Below, in pieces: positions 7,689 to 15,170 of a stretch of DNA of 32,000 bases; position 1 is the stretch's first letter, and each line of letters starts with the position of its first letter. Source of the DNA: Candidatus Poseidoniaceae archaeon. GTDB taxonomy: Archaea; Thermoplasmatota; Poseidoniia; Poseidoniales; Poseidoniaceae. The translations under genes and the position numbers were made by a program. The notes under the pieces were generated by a model. It had not been told where the DNA came from. It saw nothing but the letters and a program-made list of their open reading frames with translations, and ran no database searches. The stretch is taken from the NCBI GenBank assembly GCA_943789275.1, contig CALSTM010000002.1, forward strand, positions 150,001-182,000, written 5' to 3'.

Positions 7689-8567
7689 TTAACGAAGTTT
7701 CTCGACAAAGAATGCGCGTGCACGCACCATGGAATCTGCACGCGCTGCAGGATTTCCCTCAACGTGAGCCCCCCTGTTTCGTAAAATGCGAATCACCCAT
7801 CGCCGTTGCCAGCGTTGATTCAAAGGCCATCGAATACCGAGGAATAAATTTCCAGACATGTGCCCGTTCTTATCAATTCGTGCAGTTCGTTTGTTCAGAT
7901 GAACCGCTTTTGGCAGTAAGGCATATTCCAGCTCACTGTCAAAGGAATGATGTGCCCCGGAATACGTATGCAAGTGTGCATTCGGCAGTTGCGGCATCAA
8001 ACTCTCGACGAAGTGCAATGGGGTCCAATCATCAGCATCTCCGTGAAGAATAAGCATTGGCGAATCCGTCCATTTTTGGATTTCCGGACGGAGATGGGCT
8101 GCTGGATAAAAGGGTAAATGAGCATCAAATGGTGTTCCTAAAACATCACAGAGAGGTAACCAGGACGAATAGAGTGCTACGGTACCTCCAAGACTCCAAC
8201 CGGTAATTCCAACCTTTCCAATTCGAGAATCTTGTTCAAGCACTGAGCGGGTGCGAAAAGCGTCAACGAGCATCATTGCATGCGTGACGGTAAGTTGGTC
8301 GTCAACTGTAGAATCAACTGAGCGTGAAGTGAAGGAATGAATTTTGCAAACGGCGAGACCTTCAGCGAGCCAACCATTGATGTGGTCCTGGTGATGAGAA
8401 GCCCAACCCATGCTTCCATGAAGAGCAATCACGCACCCGAACGGACCTTCTCCTTTGGGAAGAAATAATTCCGCATCTACCGTGGTCTCCGAAGTATTTT
8501 CCAAGCCGGTGAGTATGTGATGAATTTCAAAAGGAGAGCGGGAAAGTACACGGAATCGCTCGCCCAT
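7689..8567 (-). CDS. alpha/beta hydrolase, dienelactone-hydrolase-like
   Basis: Nucleophile elbow GWSLGG, then LILHGDADDWTP (Asp) and GAHHSFD (His), in the order expected for a DLH-type catalytic triad. Confidence 0.8.
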   Translation of the reverse strand: MGERFRVLSRSPFEIHHILTGLENTSETTVDAELFLPKGEGPFGCVIALHGSMGWASHHQDHINGWLAEGLAVCKIHSFTSRSVDSTVDDQLTVTHAMMLVDAFRTRSVLEQDSRIGKVGITGWSLGGTVALYSSWLPLCDVLGTPFDAHLPFYPAAHLRPEIQKWTDSPMLILHGDADDWTPLHFVESLMPQLPNAHLHTYSGAHHSFDSELEYALLPKAVHLNKRTARIDKNGHMSGNLFLGIRWPLNQRWQRRWVIRILRNRGAHVEGNPAARADSMVRARAFFVEKLR

Positions 8568-8895
8568 GGTTTTGGGAAAGCATGTGACACTTCAAATGTG
8601 CTTTTGTAAATCAAATGTATAAGCTTGTGAGGAACAACCACAAGGGCTACTCCAAAAAATACCCTTGTGAAGATGCGGATCGTGTACAAGGGTGTTTAGC
8701 AAAACCCTCGTGAACAGAAGTAAATCACTTTGGTTGGCCCGCTTTGCTTGTTGTAGGAACAGCGTTGATTATCTTTGCAGCAACAAGATGGGCGAAGAAA
8801 TAGGGTCTATCCGAATACCCATTGAAACGGATTTACAATTTCAAAGGGCTTTCAATCTGTCCTTCGACAGGCTAATCTCAAAAACCGATCTACAC

Positions 8896-8964
8896 AAGGG
8901 GCCCCCTCGTAGCCGTATACGTGTACAACCGTACCGTTGAAGCGTATACGAACAAAGGGGCCCC
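8896..8964. repeat. structured repeat copy A (left island boundary)
   Basis: The 40-nt core 8896-8935 is AAGGGGCCCCCTCGTAGCCGTATACGTGTACAACCGTACC. The self-complementary blocks GGGGCCCC (8898-8905 / 8957-8964) and CGTATACG (8914-8921 / 8943-8950) can nest into a hairpin of about 67 nt. Confidence 0.8.
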
Positions 8965-8982
8965 TTATGTTTGTTCGAAAAT

Positions 8983-10044
8983 TCATGTATTCAATGACTT
9001 TAATGCATTGACGATTCTAGAAGATCTTAATCTCTTCAAATCCTTTTCATTTAAGACTTCAATTACAAATCTTCTGCTGTATAGGTTGCGTGTTGCCAAT
9101 TCATCCTTAATGTCAAAATACGTTATTTCTTGAAAACCCGGTAAGTTGCAAACAAAATCTTGATCTGAAAAAGATTGTTTTTCTTTAGTAGACTCCTCAA
9201 AGGCATAAAAATGGTTATCATCAAACCCAACAACCAACAATGGCTTTTCCTTGTTATCTGCAAGACAAACAATTTTCCCGACAAGTGATGGATTGTTAGG
9301 CTTGCCTAGTTCACCCTTGTTATCTTTTGAAAATTTGATATGCGGAAGTTCTCGAATTTTACTTATATGGTCTTCAGAAAGCCTGCCGATGACAGAATTA
9401 ACCTGTTCCGATGATATAGTGATTGGTTTTGATTCAAGACTTAAATGAGTAATGTCATTTGATGGGAGTTCAGATGAAAAAAAAGTCAAACTGTTTAGAG
9501 AACCGTCAAGTATATCACACTCTGGTAAGATCAGTAAATTACCATTTTTCAACTTCCCAACAATTACGCCTAAGTTTAAATCTTCCAATCCGATATGTAT
9601 ACTAGAATCATGTTCATTCCTAACCCAACATATCAAGTCCCATCGACTAGCATTGTTTTGCTCTGTTCTATCTGAAGAAAACCATGACCTCATTGCACAC
9701 CTTGCTAATAAGTCCTCCAACCTATCTGGATTGAGTCGCCCTATTCTAGATTTAATCTTATCAGATTTCACTCCCTTAACAATTTCCAGTTGGAAATATG
9801 TTTCGTGTTTGATTGTTCTTGCATTCTCATGCTCAATGCAATACGGAGAAACTTCAAATGAGGTGAACATCTCATTCCTAACCAACAAATGTTCCGGAGT
9901 TGGATATGATGTACCACTTAAAACAGCAATAATTTCGTCTTGGTCTTCTAGCACAATTGCGGGATGTAAAGTGCCTTTCTCATCATTCTCAAATTCAAAA
10001 TCTATCCAAACCAAGTCACCCAAATCAAAGTCATCTTCCCGCAT
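8983..10044 (-). CDS. hypothetical protein with three tandem PemK/MazF-like (SH3-fold toxin) repeats
   Basis: Repeat 1, GDLVWIDFE..GTLHPAIVLE..IIAVLSGTS...IGRLNPDRLEDLLAR, parallels the MazF pattern GDI.W.DF..G.E..+.RPA.VLS...V.PITS...IG.L....L..I. Repeats 2 and 3 keep the terminal motif (VIGRLSEDHISKIRE; VIEVLNEKDLKRLR). ATG 10044 is preferred over TTG 10059, and TTTATGAAAA lies just upstream. Confidence 0.7.
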   Translation of the reverse strand: MREDDFDLGDLVWIDFEFENDEKGTLHPAIVLEDQDEIIAVLSGTSYPTPEHLLVRNEMFTSFEVSPYCIEHENARTIKHETYFQLEIVKGVKSDKIKSRIGRLNPDRLEDLLARCAMRSWFSSDRTEQNNASRWDLICWVRNEHDSSIHIGLEDLNLGVIVGKLKNGNLLILPECDILDGSLNSLTFFSSELPSNDITHLSLESKPITISSEQVNSVIGRLSEDHISKIRELPHIKFSKDNKGELGKPNNPSLVGKIVCLADNKEKPLLVVGFDDNHFYAFEESTKEKQSFSDQDFVCNLPGFQEITYFDIKDELATRNLYSRRFVIEVLNEKDLKRLRSSRIVNALKSLNT

Positions 10045-10327
10045 ATAATCATCTTCCAATTTTCATAAACCAATTCCAGGACCAGTCTACGGGGGGAACC
10101 TCAACCACGTGATCTGTATGCTAGTATCAGCCTTCCACTGCCGATAGTACTTAAAGAAATTGATAAGCATATTATAACAATTCACAAGGGGTTCTCCATA
10201 ACACCCACTGATTCATCCTGCCCATACACATGACCTTGCTATGGGCCATATTGAACCCTAGCGTTGTATAGGACGGACATTAGTTGGAAATGAGAAAGAT
10301 TATGTTGACCTTAGCATTGAGAATAGT

Positions 10328-11188
10328 ATGGCCGCAACCATTTCTCTGGCTAATTTGGCAATTGGCGTTCTCACTGGTACAGAAGATGTGCCTGGAAATA
10401 TTCTAGAACACATCAATCAAGAGAGCGTCTCAAATCTCGATTCGGCAGGGATGGTGTGGTTACTCAAATGGGTCACGGCATTCCCGGCCTCAAACGATAT
10501 AGAACATATTTTTCAGCACCATTTTTCACAGTACCTTGAGCAAACAGAAGATCCACATGTTCTAGCTCACATGTTGTTATATGCAGATACGGTTCATGAA
10601 AATCCTTCATTAAAGACAACGATTGAAAGGAGAATAAAACACACTAATCTTCAGCACAATCAACTAATTCAATCTGCTCGGCGCTCTATTGTATTAGACC
10701 GGAGGTTTGAAGACCTTTGTGATTCAATGCCTCCACCCGATGATAATGAGGGGTATGTAGAAGATTTGAAATGGTATTCAAATAATGATGATCCATTATT
10801 CATTGGTCCATCCTATCACAGACTTATTTCTTCAGCAATATGCCAGGCACTGAGTAAAAAAATTGTTTCGGATGAACACATCGATGCACTGGAAAACATT
10901 TCATCAACTGGAGTTGAAAACGCTCTTTGTGTTGCGCAATTGCATTATTGTAACCACAATCAAACTAGATGTTTTGAAATCATTCAAGATGTAATTGATA
11001 CTGTGCATGAATTGCCTAACAATGATTCAAGTCAAAAATATGCCGAGGATTTTCGAAAAGAATGGAGGTTGGCTCATAATAATCATCTTTCAACTCTGTG
11101 GCATCCTCGAAATTTACCATGGATGAAATCAAGGCCCATTGGATACTGGAGATTGGTTTTGGATTTGGAGGTTGCGAATAATGAGTAA
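10328..11188 (+). CDS. hypothetical His-rich, predicted all-helical protein
   Basis: 286-aa ORF with an ATG start. GATTATGT-like A/T box about 21 nt upstream. Its stop overlaps the start of the downstream nuclease gene (ATGAGTAA, 8-nt overlap). Confidence 0.65.
   Translation: MAATISLANLAIGVLTGTEDVPGNILEHINQESVSNLDSAGMVWLLKWVTAFPASNDIEHIFQHHFSQYLEQTEDPHVLAHMLLYADTVHENPSLKTTIERRIKHTNLQHNQLIQSARRSIVLDRRFEDLCDSMPPPDDNEGYVEDLKWYSNNDDPLFIGPSYHRLISSAICQALSKKIVSDEHIDALENISSTGVENALCVAQLHYCNHNQTRCFEIIQDVIDTVHELPNNDSSQKYAEDFRKEWRLAHNNHLSTLWHPRNLPWMKSRPIGYWRLVLDLEVANNE
11167..11172 (+). promoter_or_regulatory. Shine-Dalgarno GGAGGT for the GIY-YIG gene
   Basis: GGAGGT lies 8 nt upstream of ATG 11181, inside the 3' end of the preceding ORF. 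This fits translational coupling. Confidence 0.6.
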
Positions 11189-12260
11189 AAAATCACGTAA
11201 GATCCCAACTTGCGGAATTTGTGGGGAATCAGGCCATAGATCGCCCACCTGTCAAAAAGTAAAATCAATCATGTTAAAATGGGAGAAATTTGCCAGTGTT
11301 GAAGATTTTATAAAAGATCAATATCTTCTCAGCCCTATTAAAAATACCTCGAAATCGACGAAGGTTGGAGGAAAACGTGAAACACTGAGGTTTGGCAAAT
11401 GTCAAGGTTGGTACTCATTAGAAAGTGATTCTGGAGTGCATTACATTGGATTGGTTGGAGAAGTCAGCTCCAAAACGAAAATTCAGTCTAAAAACTCATT
11501 TTATGAGCGTTGGTTGGGCCACTACACGGATAGTAGAAGAAGCTGGCATGATAAGGGCGGATTTGGTGCAGGAAACAATGGAACTTGGCCGAGTGACCAT
11601 CTGAAAGATGGGAAATTACTTTCAAAAAATAAATACCAATTGTTGATTAGTAAGGTGAATAATATGGCAATTGATTACGATGAAACAAGGAAGAGAACTC
11701 CAAAGCCGAAATTTATTGTCCCAGGAGTTGAACAAGCTGCGCTGATAACAAATGTAGAACAATACATGATACATCGTTATGCAAATAATCCCGCCACTCG
11801 TAAGTTTAACAAAGATACTCCAAGCGTACTAGTTGATTCAGAGGGCACTAAAGTGAGTTTCAAACCAGATAAAGAGATTTTATTCAACACCAGTAACACC
11901 AAAACCATAAATAAAACACCACCTAATATCAGAGTCAGTATTTCGCCGAAAACTGGAGTAAACATGTCCCACTTGTGCGAATTAAACGATGAAGAGAGGA
12001 CAATGAACGATTACAAAAAGACATACAAAAAAGATCTAAAAAAGCCAGCAGCGGCTGAGAAAGCACCAGCAAAGAAATCACCAGCAAAGAAATCACCAGC
12101 AAAGAAAGCAATCAGTTCGAAAAAGAAAAATTTAACCAAAGTCCAAACTTTGCGAAAAGCGAGAGAAAAGAAACAGGATACTTGGTCTTGGAACGGAAAA
12201 AGAATGGGGAAAGTGGCTAATTATGTCATCAAGAAGGGGAAAAGAGTTGCAAAAAAATAA
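11181..12260 (+). CDS. CCHC zinc-knuckle / GIY-YIG nuclease (I-TevI-like) / AKKSP-repeat basic-tail protein
   Basis: CGICGESGHRSPTC fits CX2CX4HX4C. GWY-x9-YIG is followed by FYERWLGHY (compare I-TevI FEKRWKRHF), with later acidic residues (VEQAALITNVEQ). The C-terminus is KKPAAAEKAPAKKSPAKKSPAKK. I use ATG 11181 with its SD rather than the ORF-track start at 11139. Confidence 0.75.
   Translation: MSKKSRKIPTCGICGESGHRSPTCQKVKSIMLKWEKFASVEDFIKDQYLLSPIKNTSKSTKVGGKRETLRFGKCQGWYSLESDSGVHYIGLVGEVSSKTKIQSKNSFYERWLGHYTDSRRSWHDKGGFGAGNNGTWPSDHLKDGKLLSKNKYQLLISKVNNMAIDYDETRKRTPKPKFIVPGVEQAALITNVEQYMIHRYANNPATRKFNKDTPSVLVDSEGTKVSFKPDKEILFNTSNTKTINKTPPNIRVSISPKTGVNMSHLCELNDEERTMNDYKKTYKKDLKKPAAAEKAPAKKSPAKKSPAKKAISSKKKNLTKVQTLRKAREKKQDTWSWNGKRMGKVANYVIKKGKRVAKK
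12064..12108 (+). repeat. 3 x 15-bp tandem repeat CACCAGCAAAGAAAT inside the nuclease gene
   Basis: Copies lie at 12064-12078, 12079-12093 and 12094-12108, and the last base of the third copy differs. They encode the (S)PAKK repeats. Confidence 0.9.
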
Positions 12261-12265
12261 TTGAA

Positions 12266-12294
12266 TCTGTCTTTTTTAAAAAGCAAATCACAGA
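12266..12294 (+). terminator. putative terminator: T6 run within hairpin/palindrome
   Basis: TCTGT (12266-12270) pairs with ACAGA (12290-12294) around the palindrome CTTTTTTAAAAAG (12271-12283). It starts 6 nt after the stop at 12260. An oligo-T tract is the usual archaeal termination signal. Confidence 0.4.
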
Positions 12295-12366
12295 CTAAAA
12301 GTTCCTTCTTCAACAGTCCCTGTGTATGTATACGAAGCCATGAGTAGACTCAAACATGAGTGTTAA

Positions 12367-12437
12367 AAGGGGCCCCCTCGAAGCCGTATACGTGTACAAC
12401 GGTACCCATGTGAATGCAGACGTGCATAAGGGGGCCC
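12367..12437. repeat. structured repeat copy B (right island boundary)
   Basis: The core 12367-12406 is AAGGGGCCCCCTCGAAGCCGTATACGTGTACAACGGTACC. Next comes an ATGCA-GACG-TGCAT hairpin, then AAGGGGGCCC (12428-12437), which can pair with the first GGGGCCCC block. Confidence 0.8.
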
Positions 12438-12479
12438 GTTGTGTATAATGTTTGAATTTGACAATCTGGGATTGATATC

Positions 12480-13595
12480 TCACTCTACTTCTTGAAGTCG
12501 TGTGCCGTCTCCAAGAAGGCCAACACTGCAATCGTACCCGGGATTAATGCAATTGTTGATGATGAGGTCCATGATGTCCGGGTCCCATCCATTCATCCAG
12601 TCGCCATGCAAAGATGAGCCGCTCGGGTGTGATGCATTCATGTCTGATGAGAGATACCATGTGTCCGATGGACCGGTCTCTTCCGTGACCCAGAATGCAA
12701 ATTTGTACGATATTTCAGGAATGGCTACGGGGTGTGAGTCCGGGCAATATCCCGTGCCTGTGTTTGGTGCCTCAGCGAGGATAGGATAGGACATGTGGCT
12801 GCGCTGATTTTCTGAGGTGAGATTTTGTCCATCCCAACATTGTGGAAAAACGACCCTAAACTCGAGTAATTCACCTGGTTGACATTCAGGCAAATACGGC
12901 ACATGATCCATTGGATCTCCCTCATCGAATTGAGGAGAAGGAGCCTCCCAATGTTCGCAACGATACTTCGCACTTATCACGTCTTGCGGTTCTGGTCTGT
13001 CATGACCTGCAATCATCACCAAGCCTTCAGGTGGGGCTTGAATAAGCTCCGCAGGAATATGGTAGCCGCTTTTGTAGTAAAAGAGAGGTTCAACATATTC
13101 CAGCCTGGTTCCATCTGCTGAAAACAATGATGGCACCCAATAAGCGGCTTGATTCAAAGCCACTCCTTCGCAAGTCGTTTGATCTGTTGCGTTCCTCAGT
13201 TGTTCCGTCGTGGTGTTTGCATCCGTTTCAGGGAATCCAAAGAAAACATGCTCGTGAGCAGCCCCTGTTTGTCCGGGATATACGAGAGGGTCGTCATTGT
13301 TGACATGGGATTCTGTGCAGTGTGTACGAAAATTCCCGGTTCCGTCTTCGTTGATGTAGATGTTTTCATCAGAATAAATTCTGCCTGGCTGTAGGTCGAT
13401 CTCAGGAGGGGGGTTCGTCTTTACGAGATCGCTTTCATCCTCACCATCTTCGTCTCCCTCAAACCAATCGAAGGCATCAATGGCGATGATGCTTGCAACA
13501 ATCATTAGAAGAATAGAAAAGGACGTGATTTTGGTGCCGAAGAACTTCGCTGACGTAGCAACATCGACTTCTCGGAAATTCTCAGTTTCCTCCAC
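12480..13595 (-). CDS. DUF1996 domain protein with N-terminal membrane anchor
   Basis: The TM segment is ITSFSILLMIVASIIAIDAF. The motif FRTHCTESHVNNDDPLVYPGQTGAAHEHVFFG matches the DUF1996 signature (sH...DDPIv.PG....H.H.FFG). The start is GTG, with TTATCAAT (rc of 13617-13624) exactly 21 nt upstream. Confidence 0.8.
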   Translation of the reverse strand: MEETENFREVDVATSAKFFGTKITSFSILLMIVASIIAIDAFDWFEGDEDGEDESDLVKTNPPPEIDLQPGRIYSDENIYINEDGTGNFRTHCTESHVNNDDPLVYPGQTGAAHEHVFFGFPETDANTTTEQLRNATDQTTCEGVALNQAAYWVPSLFSADGTRLEYVEPLFYYKSGYHIPAELIQAPPEGLVMIAGHDRPEPQDVISAKYRCEHWEAPSPQFDEGDPMDHVPYLPECQPGELLEFRVVFPQCWDGQNLTSENQRSHMSYPILAEAPNTGTGYCPDSHPVAIPEISYKFAFWVTEETGPSDTWYLSSDMNASHPSGSSLHGDWMNGWDPDIMDLIINNCINPGYDCSVGLLGDGTRLQEVE

Positions 13596-13616
13596 GAGGC
13601 TCCCTCGTGTTGGTTA

Positions 13617-13624
13617 TTGATAAG
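13617..13624 (-). promoter_or_regulatory. TATA-like box (TTATCAAT on minus strand) for the DUF1996 gene
   Basis: 21-nt spacing to GTG 13595. Confidence 0.4.
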
Positions 13625-13790
13625 GTATCGTACATCTTGATTTCAGAATCAAGGAAATCAAAATTCCAACATAAGTTTCATGAAAATTGTTCATTAGCAT
13701 AATCCCGATATTGAGGATTTTCATTTGCCAATCTCCAAGGGCCTCTTCACTGACCCACGGAGATAAGATTCGAATTCACAAGGGTTCGCA

Positions 13791-13828
13791 GTGGGTCGTG
13801 TTCGACGCTAGCGTCTAAAATGACCCAC
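13791..13828. repeat. 38-bp imperfect palindrome GTGGGTC-N6-GACGCTAGCGTC-N6-GACCCAC
   Basis: The outer 7-mers and the central 12-mer are perfectly self-complementary; the 6-nt spacers are not. A third GACCCAC lies at 13752-13758. Confidence 0.85.
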
Positions 13829-13840
13829 GCAAAGCCCATT
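13809..13840. repeat. left arm of 32-nt inverted repeat flanking the lipoprotein gene
   Basis: TAGCGTCTAAAATGACCCACGCAAAGCCCATT matches the reverse complement of 15139-15170 at 31/32 positions. 13809-13833 is perfect against 15146-15170. Confidence 0.9.
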
Positions 13841-13961
13841 CAAACAGCATTCGCATTCGCATGGGTATTCGGATGAACCCTTACGAATTATCCGATTCGA
13901 ATTATTTGATACATTGAAATTAATAGAAACAACTAATTGATTAACTCACTAAAATTAATCT

Positions 13962-15116
13962 ATGCAGAAAATACCACTGATAATTTTTTTAATGATGATG
14001 GCCGTATCCCTTTCCGGATGCATTGGAGGAGAAGTTGAAACCAGCGATGGAGAAGAACTCATCTTGGAAGATACCGATGATTGGCCAACCTACCTTGTTC
14101 CAACTTCCGGAGATCTACCAGCCTGTGACGCGACCACACTCGGAAGGTTGTATTATGTTGAAGCAGAAACGAGTTTTCAAGCTTGCAGTTCATCTGGTTG
14201 GAACGTTATTGACTTTTCAACTCCCCTGAATCAAGCACCAAGAATTTCAGCAACCATCATGGCAGATGATGACGGACATAGCTTCTCGGAGGATTTGTCT
14301 GCAGAATGGATGTATGTTGGACAGTTGACTTGGTCTGCAGTTGACCCCGAAGGGGAAGCCGTTACGGTCGGAGTGGACCATGACCGAGACGGTACTGCCG
14401 ACATCATGCTTCCAAGAGCAGAGGGCTCAATAGTTGATGTTGCAGGCGGAATGCTGACGGTGCCATGGAACGGAAGTATTGTCAGCGAGAGGCTGGAGTT
14501 CCCCAACAGTTGTTACTTGGCGTTTACAAGAATGATCGATGTGATTTCAACAGATGCTTCAGGCATCTCAGCGTCGTACACCGTCCAAACCGGTGCCATA
14601 TCCTCAAATAATATATTCAGCAACATGTATTCTGCTGAAGATGTTGATTGGGTTGAAATGCTCTTTGAAAATTATGTTTCCCAAGACGATCTTGATTGGC
14701 TTGATGGAACTGCTACAGACTCGAATTGCGAGGCGGACTCTAACTCAGGACCCCAACTTAGCGTTTATGATTTCACAGCACAGGACTCCGGCGTTGCAGT
14801 GAGTTCAGCATCTGATGATGTTCTCTTTAGCATAACCTATCAACAAGGAAGCAGTTTAGGTTCAGAATTTTTGAAAATTACGCTTTCTGTAAATGGAAAT
14901 CAACCCGTGAACTGTTATGCATCTACGGGAATGGGGGATTGCAGCTATGAACTTTCAACTACAGGTGAAACGTTTTCCGTTGGGGCTTCAATCGTTGTAT
15001 CCGAGGATGGTACTGATCTATGCAATGAAGGTCATGACCCTTGCGAAATTTCCATTACGTTGGTAAACTCCGACACCAATGAAGTATTGGATAACATCAC
15101 CGTTGAAGTTGAATGA
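13962..15116 (+). CDS. secreted acidic lipoprotein / surface protein, function unknown
   Basis: The signal peptide carries a lipobox (MQKIPLIIFLMMMAVSLSGC). The mature part is very Asp/Glu/Ser/Thr-rich with paired Cys residues. Confidence 0.75.
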   Translation: MQKIPLIIFLMMMAVSLSGCIGGEVETSDGEELILEDTDDWPTYLVPTSGDLPACDATTLGRLYYVEAETSFQACSSSGWNVIDFSTPLNQAPRISATIMADDDGHSFSEDLSAEWMYVGQLTWSAVDPEGEAVTVGVDHDRDGTADIMLPRAEGSIVDVAGGMLTVPWNGSIVSERLEFPNSCYLAFTRMIDVISTDASGISASYTVQTGAISSNNIFSNMYSAEDVDWVEMLFENYVSQDDLDWLDGTATDSNCEADSNSGPQLSVYDFTAQDSGVAVSSASDDVLFSITYQQGSSLGSEFLKITLSVNGNQPVNCYASTGMGDCSYELSTTGETFSVGASIVVSEDGTDLCNEGHDPCEISITLVNSDTNEVLDNITVEVE

Positions 15117-15138
15117 AACGATATATTGTAGATTTTGC

Positions 15139-15170
15139 AATGGGTTTTGCGTGGGTCATTTTAGACGCTA
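15139..15170. repeat. right arm of 32-nt inverted repeat
   Basis: AATGGGTTTTGCGTGGGTCATTTTAGACGCTA, the reverse complement of the left arm with one mismatch. Confidence 0.9.

Follow-up and report, generated by a model that had tools for sequence, protein, structure and literature searches.

The window analysed here is a stretch of 32,000 nucleotides of contig CALSTM010000002.1 from a Candidatus Poseidoniaceae archaeon (Marine Group II), and the element in question is an AT-rich island located between a DLH gene and a DUF1996 gene. The island carries three genes and runs from one TA dinucleotide to another. At each of these junctions two sequences of about 45 nt, referred to here as arms, start from the same TA and extend in opposite directions. 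The features of the island and of its immediate borders are the following.

TA 8932/3 to TA 12403/4: the island (cassette), 3471 bp, three cargo genes between two inward-facing arms
8889-8933, minus strand: resident arm B' on the DLH-gene side, corresponding to the left copy of a 40-nt repeat and reading outward TA-CGGTTGTACACGTATACGGCTACGAGGGGGCCCCTTGTGTAG (nhmmer arm model, E 1.7e-7)
8932-8933: left junction TA, the putative crossover dinucleotide; both arms start here and homology with other contexts ends here
8932-8971, plus strand: island terminal arm B, TA-CCGTTGAAGCGTATACGAACAAAGGGGCCCCTTATG, which pairs with B' in a hairpin of -51.7 kcal/mol
8983-10059, minus strand: cargo gene 1, 353/358 aa, N-terminal PemK/MazF-like domain (Pfam PF02452) and a C-terminal part of about 240 aa
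10328-11188, plus strand: cargo gene 2, 286 aa, without library match
11181-12260, plus strand: cargo gene 3, 359 aa, with an N-terminal CX2CX4HX4C zinc knuckle (retroviral-type), GIY-YIG-like motifs and a Lys-rich AKKSPAKK tail
12363-12404, minus strand: island terminal arm B'*, corresponding to the right copy of the 40-nt repeat, constant in 10/10 contexts examined
12403-12404: right junction TA; exactly here, locus L013 contains an additional cassette of 3431 bp with a serine-recombinase gene
12403-12448, plus strand: arm A, terminal arm of the DUF1996 cassette, common up to the TA to loci sharing the DUF1996 gene

The direct 40-mers at 8896-8935 and 12367-12406 are identical at 38/40 positions in the same orientation, and weaker similarity extends past them to a second GGGGCCC block. 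An earlier reading of this DNA from its letters alone (below, the sequence-only reading) had reported this repeat, and its coordinates and identity were reproduced. The longest exact repeat in shuffled windows reaches at most 17 nt, and GGGGCCCC occurs in three copies in the window against 0.21 expected. The left repeat unit forms by far the strongest hairpin of the window (z -8.7). The minus-strand open reading frames (ORFs) terminate at stop codons mapped to 8983-8985 and 12480-12482, each just upstream of a repeat unit, so that the adjacency of the repeat copies to minus-strand stops described earlier is correct.

The G+C counts given by the same reading, 18 in 9001-9060 and 34 in 8401-8460, are both exact, and the windowed composition analysis that it proposed as a check places the island outside the range of the rest of the window. 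G+C between the junction TAs (8934-12402) is 0.382, against 0.474 in equal-sized windows outside the array (standard deviation 0.014, minimum 0.445; island z about -6.6), and the tetranucleotide L1 distance is 0.397, against 0.158 in the other windows (standard deviation 0.015, maximum 0.193). The three island genes, as had been suggested, have no housekeeping identity.

A search of the 32-kb window (Pfam on ORFs, tblastn) found no integrase, transposase or resolvase. The earlier statement that integrase and transposase are absent is thus true of the window, but it does not hold beyond it, since a serine-recombinase gene is present in sister cassettes that share these arms. No tRNA gene was found in the window either, which rules out a tRNA or tmRNA attachment site; an island of the tRNA-targeting integrase type is likewise ruled out, neither a border tRNA nor an integrase being present. 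Rfam returned zero matches at the gathering threshold or at E<=1, which eliminates a known RNA family or an attC-like model for the arms.

Alleles with and without the island

Among 21 contigs encoding an identical DLH protein, 16 are free of the island and pass directly from DUF1996 to DLH, three carry it, and two carry a fatty-acid-hydroxylase cassette. The flanks of the island-free allele are 99.95-100% identical to the window, and the alignments end at 12403/4 and at about 8933-8939. The proposal that foreign-looking DNA was inserted at the hairpin downstream of the DUF1996 gene is therefore upheld, island-free alleles being the majority (16/21) and the island a composition outlier. The observation that could have overturned this proposal, namely that all relatives carry the same three genes and none lacks the island, was not made. 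The commonest of these island-free alleles is not the clean empty site that had been predicted, as it keeps a 24-nt arm fragment.

The island is found with constant ends in ten displayed contexts and in one further JGI contig, with at least three different left and at least four different right neighbours, and always at a TA. Exact copies of its 286-aa protein occur on 54 contigs, whereas the dUTPase, a core protein encoded next to the array, is found on 149. In L014 and L015, the interval between the same two TAs is taken up by the hydroxylase cassette, where its sequences are exact reverse complements of each other within the same population. The window itself represents the empty site for the recombinase cassette of L013, a locus which corresponds to the window plus 3431 bp at the right-hand TA. 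Moreover, in 6/10 displayed contexts and in L153, the island adjoins a cassette for a 265-aa paralogue of this recombinase (60% identity), which also encodes a PLD-family protein. An assembly artefact was ruled out, the same junctions being present in long-read ENA assemblies and in independent JGI short-read contigs. It can be concluded with high confidence that the island constitutes a discrete mobile cassette and that dyad sites exchange it at their TA.

Arms, dyad sites and the candidate recombinase

Each repeat copy is one arm, of about 45 nt, of a dyad-symmetric site of about 90 bp centred on TA. Within these dyad sites a single 2-bp dinucleotide is present once per junction, and one TA is left where a cassette is absent. 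The resident arm B' abuts other cassettes in L014, L015 and L013, and the inner part of arm B varies in eight other contexts. On the other side, the sequence downstream of DUF1996 is the same up to CTGCATTCACATGGG-TA in 13/15 loci and then diverges completely; the exceptions are L001, which differs just before the TA, and L002/L011, which hold the 24-nt fragment. At the upstream side of the DUF1996 loci, divergence begins directly before TA-GCGTCGAACACGACCCACTGCGAACCC. In the window, junction TAs at 8932/3, 12403/4, 13809/10 and 15169/70 delimit three consecutive cassettes.

The two mismatches of the 40-nt repeat travel with the island's own arm in every context, which places exchange at the centre of the site and not within the repeat. 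The repeat had been taken for a duplicated att core. It consists instead of the island's own arm (12363-12404) lying parallel to a related resident arm (8889-8933), only the TA being shared. The hairpin, interpreted earlier as a structure of this particular 3' untranslated region (3'-UTR), is not specific to the locus: arms from different sites fold together equally well. Indeed, real dyads fold at -40.9 kcal/mol and chimeras at -42.3 kcal/mol (p = 0.69), so that a locus-specific RNA hairpin as the selected feature was rejected and the hairpin appears as a by-product of shared arm architecture. A gapless palindrome scan missed the sites because their arms differ by indels.

An nhmmer model of the arms, seeded with the TA, was first built from 20 arms and then rebuilt from 61 unique arms, 60/61 of which start with TA, a proportion to be read with the TA-seeding of the model in mind. 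Forty plus-strand arms have a minus-strand arm within 60 nt and in 30 of these pairs both share one TA; 33 further plus-strand arms have no such partner within this distance. The model matches only around cassettes of this kind. Read outward, the arm consensus is TA-SSGTYG, followed by a variable stretch of about 12 nt, often with CGTATACG, and then by RAGGGGNCCCCTTGTGTA. The outer motif exists in two types: type 1 is half of the perfect palindrome CACAAGGGGCCCCTTGTG, and in type 2 a short hairpin partner comes after GACCCACTGCGAACCCTTGTGAA. A loose regular expression for the core dyad is matched 29 times against 3.3 expected in the DUF1996/DLH loci and 19 times against 0.7 in the recombinase loci, and unrelated bacterial loci totalling 0.89 Mb show no enrichment (8 matches, 28 expected).

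The extra cassette of L013 contains a gene for a 262-aa serine recombinase followed by a small GIY-YIG/zinc-knuckle gene. The recombinase matches the complete catalytic domain of Pfam Resolvase (7.9e-30) and the first half of the 'Recombinase' domain of large serine recombinases; its best NCBIfam match is CcrB (5e-23), followed by XisF and CcrC/A, and its best PDB match is the catalytic domain of TP901-1 integrase. The catalytic residues Y16, R18, S21, D93, R94 and R97 are invariant in 25 recombinase sequences. Marine metagenomes are very rich in this family, with 1417 clusters at E<=1e-10; most of the contigs involved span 1-5 kb, a length to be expected of repeated DNA. Recombinase genes are found in the cassettes of L013, L087 and L093, among others.

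The arms are linked to this recombinase. Among 80 metagenomic recombinase loci fetched with the family profile, 43 have arm matches at E<1. In the close clade (at least 74% identity, 31 loci), a closing arm lies 0.6-3.6 kb after the gene in 15/16 loci with at least 925 nt of downstream sequence, and in several loci the first arm model also detected a type 2 arm that opens the unit, at 0.7-1.0 kb upstream of the recombinase gene. Arm density is 1 per 2.1 kb in this clade against 1 per 16.6 kb in the 60-70% clade, and no arm was found at E<1 in 0.89 Mb of unrelated loci, all matches of that scan being located in recombinase loci. A typical autonomous unit, of 2.2-3.8 kb, is composed of a TA, a type 2 arm, a divergent gene for a Cys-rich membrane protein, the recombinase gene, often a GIY-YIG/knuckle gene, a type 1 arm and a TA. 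The GIY-YIG/zinc-knuckle gene after the recombinase is supported by Pfam in 13 loci, all but one in the close clade.

Proposed exchange at the TA and alternatives

The island is probably a non-autonomous cargo cassette of a serine-recombinase cassette system in this archaeon. Each cassette is a unit with two inward-facing arms of about 45 nt sitting between two TAs, and the arms that come together where a cassette adjoins another one or the chromosome make a dyad site of about 90 bp centred on TA. In the proposed scheme a circularised cassette (arm B-TA-arm B'*), whose putative joint is GGGGCCCCTTTGTTCGTATACGCTTCAACGG-TA-CCGTTGTACACGTATACGGCTTCGAGGGGGCCCC, would recombine with the resident site downstream of the DUF1996 cassette, predicted in its precise empty form to be CTGCATTCACATGGG-TA-CGGTTGTACACGTATACGG, and exchange would take place at the TA by a 2-bp staggered cut. 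The likely catalyst is the serine recombinase of about 262-265 aa, which would be provided in trans by sister cassettes with the same arms; a resolvase homologue is absent from the window, so that the island would be non-autonomous. Cassettes could integrate in both orientations, build up stacked arrays, undergo inversion and be excised.

In serine integrases such as those of Bxb1 and phiC31, polarity is set by the 2-bp overlap and is abolished when this overlap is palindromic. The TA is self-complementary, so that exchange would have no polarity and either orientation would be possible; the rule matches the presence of cassettes in both orientations. Confidence in the serine-recombinase mechanism is moderate: the boundaries, the presence/absence alleles, the variety of contexts, the arm family and the linkage of the arms to recombinase genes are observed, whereas the catalyst, the circular intermediate and a cut exactly at the TA are inferred.

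Several points weigh against this mechanism. The 32-kb window and most cassettes have no recombinase, so that action in trans has to be assumed, and the recombinase gene, which is itself part of a cassette, could be just another passenger. The conserved outer palindrome is located 27-45 bp from the TA, beyond the expected reach of a recombinase with a partial DNA-binding domain. Neither an excised circle nor the precise A-TA-B' empty site was found, and the fetched loci include no circular contig. The fragment kept by the commonest island-free allele is a 24-nt inner portion of another arm, located between arm A and the TA (L002/L011, around 11190-11216). The inner 5-25 nt of the arms vary between cassette copies whose remaining sequence is 99-100% identical, and in one island copy a whole arm has been replaced. 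One neighbour arm is shortened by 16 nt; besides L002/L011, the imprecise junctions are located at L185 9072 and L183 5599. Such junctions are not predicted by a clean 2-bp exchange and keep alive second crossover points, gene conversion of arms or nuclease action plus repair.

The alternative that survives best, itself unlikely, is that of cut-and-paste elements which duplicate a TA, that is, cargo-carrying units resembling miniature inverted-repeat transposable elements or mobile insertion cassettes, with terminal inverted repeats of about 45 nt and a DDE transposase of IS630/Tc1-mariner type supplied in trans. It agrees with the presence of TA at the flanks of every cassette, with the complementary terminal arms of the island and of the neighbouring 384-aa cassette described below, and with insertion in either orientation. 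It is at odds with the ~300 kb around the arrays, in which no DDE transposase was annotated or found, and with the junctions themselves: nearly all of those examined are framed by a recognisable arm on each side, and no cassette sits at an arbitrary TA. The exception is the outer edge of the array by the dUTPase, whose outer flank does not resemble an arm. Moreover, the two ends of the DUF1996, hydroxylase and recombinase cassettes carry arms of different types, and among recombination enzymes only the serine recombinase has arms at its borders.

Less likely still is shuffling driven by a nuclease, in which a GIY-YIG enzyme would cut the central TA of a dyad or cruciform and ligation or arm-templated repair would then produce a homing-like spread. 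GIY-YIG nucleases typically leave 2-nt 3' overhangs. The Pfam-supported GIY-YIG/zinc-knuckle genes that follow the recombinase and the GIY-YIG-like motif set in the third gene of the island would provide such an enzyme, and the polymorphism of inner arms, the arm swap and the 24-nt remnant resemble products of repair more than those of a clean exchange. However, most cassettes, including many recombinase cassettes, have no GIY-YIG gene, and the GIY-YIG fold of the island protein is unconfirmed. Classical homing, in addition, requires long flanking homology, whereas the cassettes share only arms of about 45 nt and of differing sequence.

It is improbable that the dyads are substrates of a tyrosine recombinase of the host (XerA-like, or some other integrase with its gene elsewhere), in the way that the pdif modules of Acinetobacter plasmids are substrates of XerC/D. 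Modules placed between inverted recombination sites, in either orientation and in many contexts, are common to both situations, and variation in the few bases beside the TA could reflect an overlap region of 6-8 bp. Yet the surroundings of the arrays yielded no tyrosine recombinase, the bases beside the TA are not the same in the two partners (GG/CC, GC/GC, CG/CC), a situation poorly tolerated by a homology-dependent overlap of 6-8 bp, and the sites are about three times longer than dif-type sites. Finally, it is very improbable that dedicated machinery is absent and that general homologous recombination reshuffles the cassettes by way of arms which are repeated hairpins of 3'-UTRs or terminators: arms do lie 17-100 nt after stop codons at most cassette ends examined, any two arms fold at about -41 kcal/mol and the 40-nt direct repeat could support deletion, but joined arms are often dissimilar (A and B'*, type 1 and type 2) and nevertheless always meet at the same TA, both repeat mismatches segregate with the island, inversions are exact, and arms are also located at the 5' ends of genes.

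Beyond the serine-recombinase reading of the island itself, a wider proposal is put forward tentatively, as something a little short of probable: that Poseidoniaceae, and perhaps Marine Group II more widely, have an integron-like system of cassette exchange. It would rely on a miniature serine recombinase (about 262 aa) and on long dyad sites of three parts with a TA devoid of polarity, would form arrays at several hot spots of the chromosome, and would pass identical cassettes between lineages with core genes of only about 70% identity. The GIY-YIG/zinc-knuckle and Cys-rich proteins that often accompany the recombinase would be accessory factors for site binding or cleavage.

Members of Marine Group II are uncultured and, to our knowledge, the way in which their flexible genome is assembled is essentially unknown. 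These archaea have been described as the most abundant ones of the plankton in surface ocean water (PMC6461757). If the proposed mechanism is correct, a site of about 90 bp and a 262-aa enzyme would be the parts of a concrete, testable route by which this group acquires, loses and inverts genes and transfers them between lineages. If confirmed, so small a serine recombinase, acting without polarity on a long modular site, would also be of interest for the construction of recombinase tools. For annotation, genes of chromosomal appearance such as DUF1996 are mobile cargo here, and the arms explain breaks in short-read assemblies of these genomes.

Cargo, neighbouring cassettes and related systems

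The PemK/MazF-like assignment of cargo gene 1 is based on PF02452 (E 5.3e-5, 23.8 bits against a cutoff of 23.1, residues 14-120 of 358), on a match to a MazF-like PHROG (6.5e-6) and on homologue clusters with the same Pfam tag. The AlphaFold2 (AF2) model of the protein is poor (pLDDT 39.6), and no antitoxin was recognised beside the gene. Homologues of this fusion protein of 462-464 aa (P0150-P0152) are 48-58% identical to it, and 462-aa ORFs occur a few kb from the island in several contexts (L180, L183-L186). The 286-aa protein encoded by cargo gene 2 has zero matches in Pfam, PHROG, PADLOC and NCBIfam.

The 359-aa protein of cargo gene 3 had been described as resembling a GIY-YIG homing endonuclease. 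The motif resemblance is real (GWY-x9-YIG; FYERWLGH, to be compared with FEKRWKRH of I-TevI; VEQY; YAN) and is conserved in seven sequences, but Pfam, PDB profile, hhalign, exhaustive HMMER and AlphaFold gave no confirmation of the fold. Pfam detects no GIY-YIG domain in this protein, the PDB profile search returns the zinc knuckle only, the hhalign comparison with I-TevI is weak (E 0.02-0.03, probability about 2%), and the AF2 model has a pLDDT of 30.7. Exhaustive HMMER searches of 1.8e9 representative proteins retrieved only about ten relatives. GIY-YIG homing into a cognate allele via long flanking homology was rejected, as the unrelated contexts of the island share only arms. The AKKSP units of the Lys-rich tail correspond to a tandem repeat of 15 nt at 12064-12108; their number varies between homologues, P0001 and P0003 having one unit more.

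No defence system was matched by PADLOC. The PemK/MazF-like fusion, the 286-aa protein and the zinc-knuckle/GIY-YIG-like protein may stabilise or defend the cassette. Proteins with HNH motifs are encoded in cassettes beside recombinase cassettes (L087 2981-3847, L093 125-1069), and nuclease-type cargo (HNH, PLD, GIY-YIG) seems to be common in these arrays.

Two further cassettes follow the island in the window.

12405-13808, minus strand: DUF1996 cassette, 1.4 kb, with the gene at 12480-13595 (Pfam DUF1996, 2.3e-43) and arm F' at 13773-13810
13809-15170, plus strand: third cassette, with a gene for a 384-aa signal-peptide-like protein at 13962-15116, arms at 13809-13840 and 15139-15170, and TAs at 13809-13810 and 15169-15170

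The genes flanking the island had been regarded as simply chromosomal. This does not apply to the DUF1996 gene, which constitutes a cassette with the same kind of arms, present in at least seven unrelated contexts (L001-L010). Its product is WP_338174507.1 of Candidatus Poseidonia alphae. Between L005 and L007 the DUF1996 cassette is 99.7% identical over 1411 bp, while the adjacent aminotransferase and DNA polymerase genes are 67-71% identical, and homology of the cassette stops at its boundaries; a near-identical cassette among diverged core genes indicates that cassettes move between distinct lineages. The third cassette, of 1.36 kb, has inverted arms of 32 nt which are 97% complementary (repeat I1). 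L003 lacks it and keeps a single TA (AAAGGG TA GCGTCGAAC), and L009 has other genes in its place. The dUTPase of the window is identical to a protein labelled Candidatus Poseidoniaceae archaeon at NCBI, and the label is shared by LipB proteins that fall into one 90%-identity cluster with the LipB of the window. Genes near the arrays in related contigs include those of archaeal eRF1, EF-1α, fibrillarin/Nop5, SRP19 and a family-B polymerase. A viral origin was ruled out: IMG/VR contains neither the perfect outer palindrome nor a relative of the 359-aa protein, and the recombinase relatives found there have at most 37% identity.

The Flavobacteriaceae metagenome-assembled genomes CALSTH01 and CALTAJ01 (L020-L024) each contain two to three copies of a DUF1996 gene that shares 77-78% identity with the gene of the archaeon. 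In 4/5 of these loci the bacterial gene is flanked on both sides by a different conserved repeat of about 70 nt (CACCAATGGATACAATCCAAATCC…ATTGATATCATTGCC), which L024 lacks. These copies suggest cross-domain transfer and a separate bacterial cassette mechanism.

The proposed system shares properties with several known ones. In the staphylococcal cassette chromosome (SCC; CcrAB/CcrC), circular cassettes are brought into a specific site by a serine recombinase, tandem arrays and terminal inverted repeats are found, and cassettes devoid of recombinase (pseudo-SCC) are presumed to be mobile in trans. However, Ccr proteins have 440-560 aa with a zinc-ribbon and a coiled-coil, whereas the recombinase here has 262 aa, lacks both of these domains and matches only the N-terminal half. 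SCC insertion is directional and confined to one attB, located in rlmH; the genomes considered here have many sites each, with a symmetric TA, both orientations and arms of about 45 nt, in an archaeal host. Tn4451/Tn4453 (TnpX) and Tn5397 (TndX) are flanked by the crossover dinucleotide GA, have targets resembling their joined ends and form a circular intermediate. A 2-bp crossover dinucleotide at the flanks is thus common to these transposons (GA) and to the cassettes (TA). The transposons, however, encode their own large recombinase and occur as single insertions, whereas the cassettes here are mostly recombinase-less cargo stacked at shared sites.

Integrons (IntI/attC) likewise form arrays of small cassettes with imperfect-palindrome sites, a flexible gene pool with spread between lineages. 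Their boundary is G|TT of the R' box and not the centre of the palindrome as here, where cassettes may carry several genes with their own upstream regions, lie in either orientation and have no attI/Pc platform. No Phage_integrase match was found in window ORFs at 6.4-16.4 kb or in Pfam tables for ±10 kb in 25 loci, and an integron in the strict sense was ruled out, because IntI is absent and the boundary lies at the central TA rather than at G|TT. A study of archaeal integrons makes no mention of Thermoplasmatota or Poseidoniales (PMC9668308). The pdif modules of Acinetobacter plasmids, acted upon by XerC/XerD, resemble the cassettes in having cargo (often toxin-antitoxin or accessory genes) between inverted sites, in many contexts and both orientations, with a recombinase in trans; they differ in their 28-bp Xer sites and host tyrosine recombinases, as opposed to dyads of about 90 bp and a serine recombinase with the same arms. 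The Hin/Gin/Mpi invertases and shufflons also involve a small serine recombinase, exchange at the central 2 bp of dyad sites and both orientations. There, fixed segments are inverted, whereas the cassettes studied here are acquired, lost and transferred from genome to genome.

The literature searched contained nothing on dyad sites centred on TA or on serine-recombinase cassettes in Poseidoniales, which does not in itself prove novelty; the cassette system appears to be undescribed so far. The Charybdis elements of Poseidoniales are circular and virus-like, of about 4.6 kb, with a conserved structural module and integrated copies in which one of the genes bears the annotation integrase/recombinase; the terms palindrome and inverted repeat do not occur in their description (bioRxiv 10.1101/2025.08.03.668216). 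These recombinase-bearing integrated copies, from the same host group, have a parallel in modules of about 5-6 kb in the present data, which contain 66%-identical relatives of the recombinase. In L076-L083 and L084, such relatives (66-70% identical) are embedded among small ORFs (76, 315/326, 307, 104, 151 and 157 aa). The L076-L083 modules also carry a second resolvase paralogue, and L076 has inverted repeats of 49 nt with a CAACGGGTA core. These modules might be integrated Charybdis elements.

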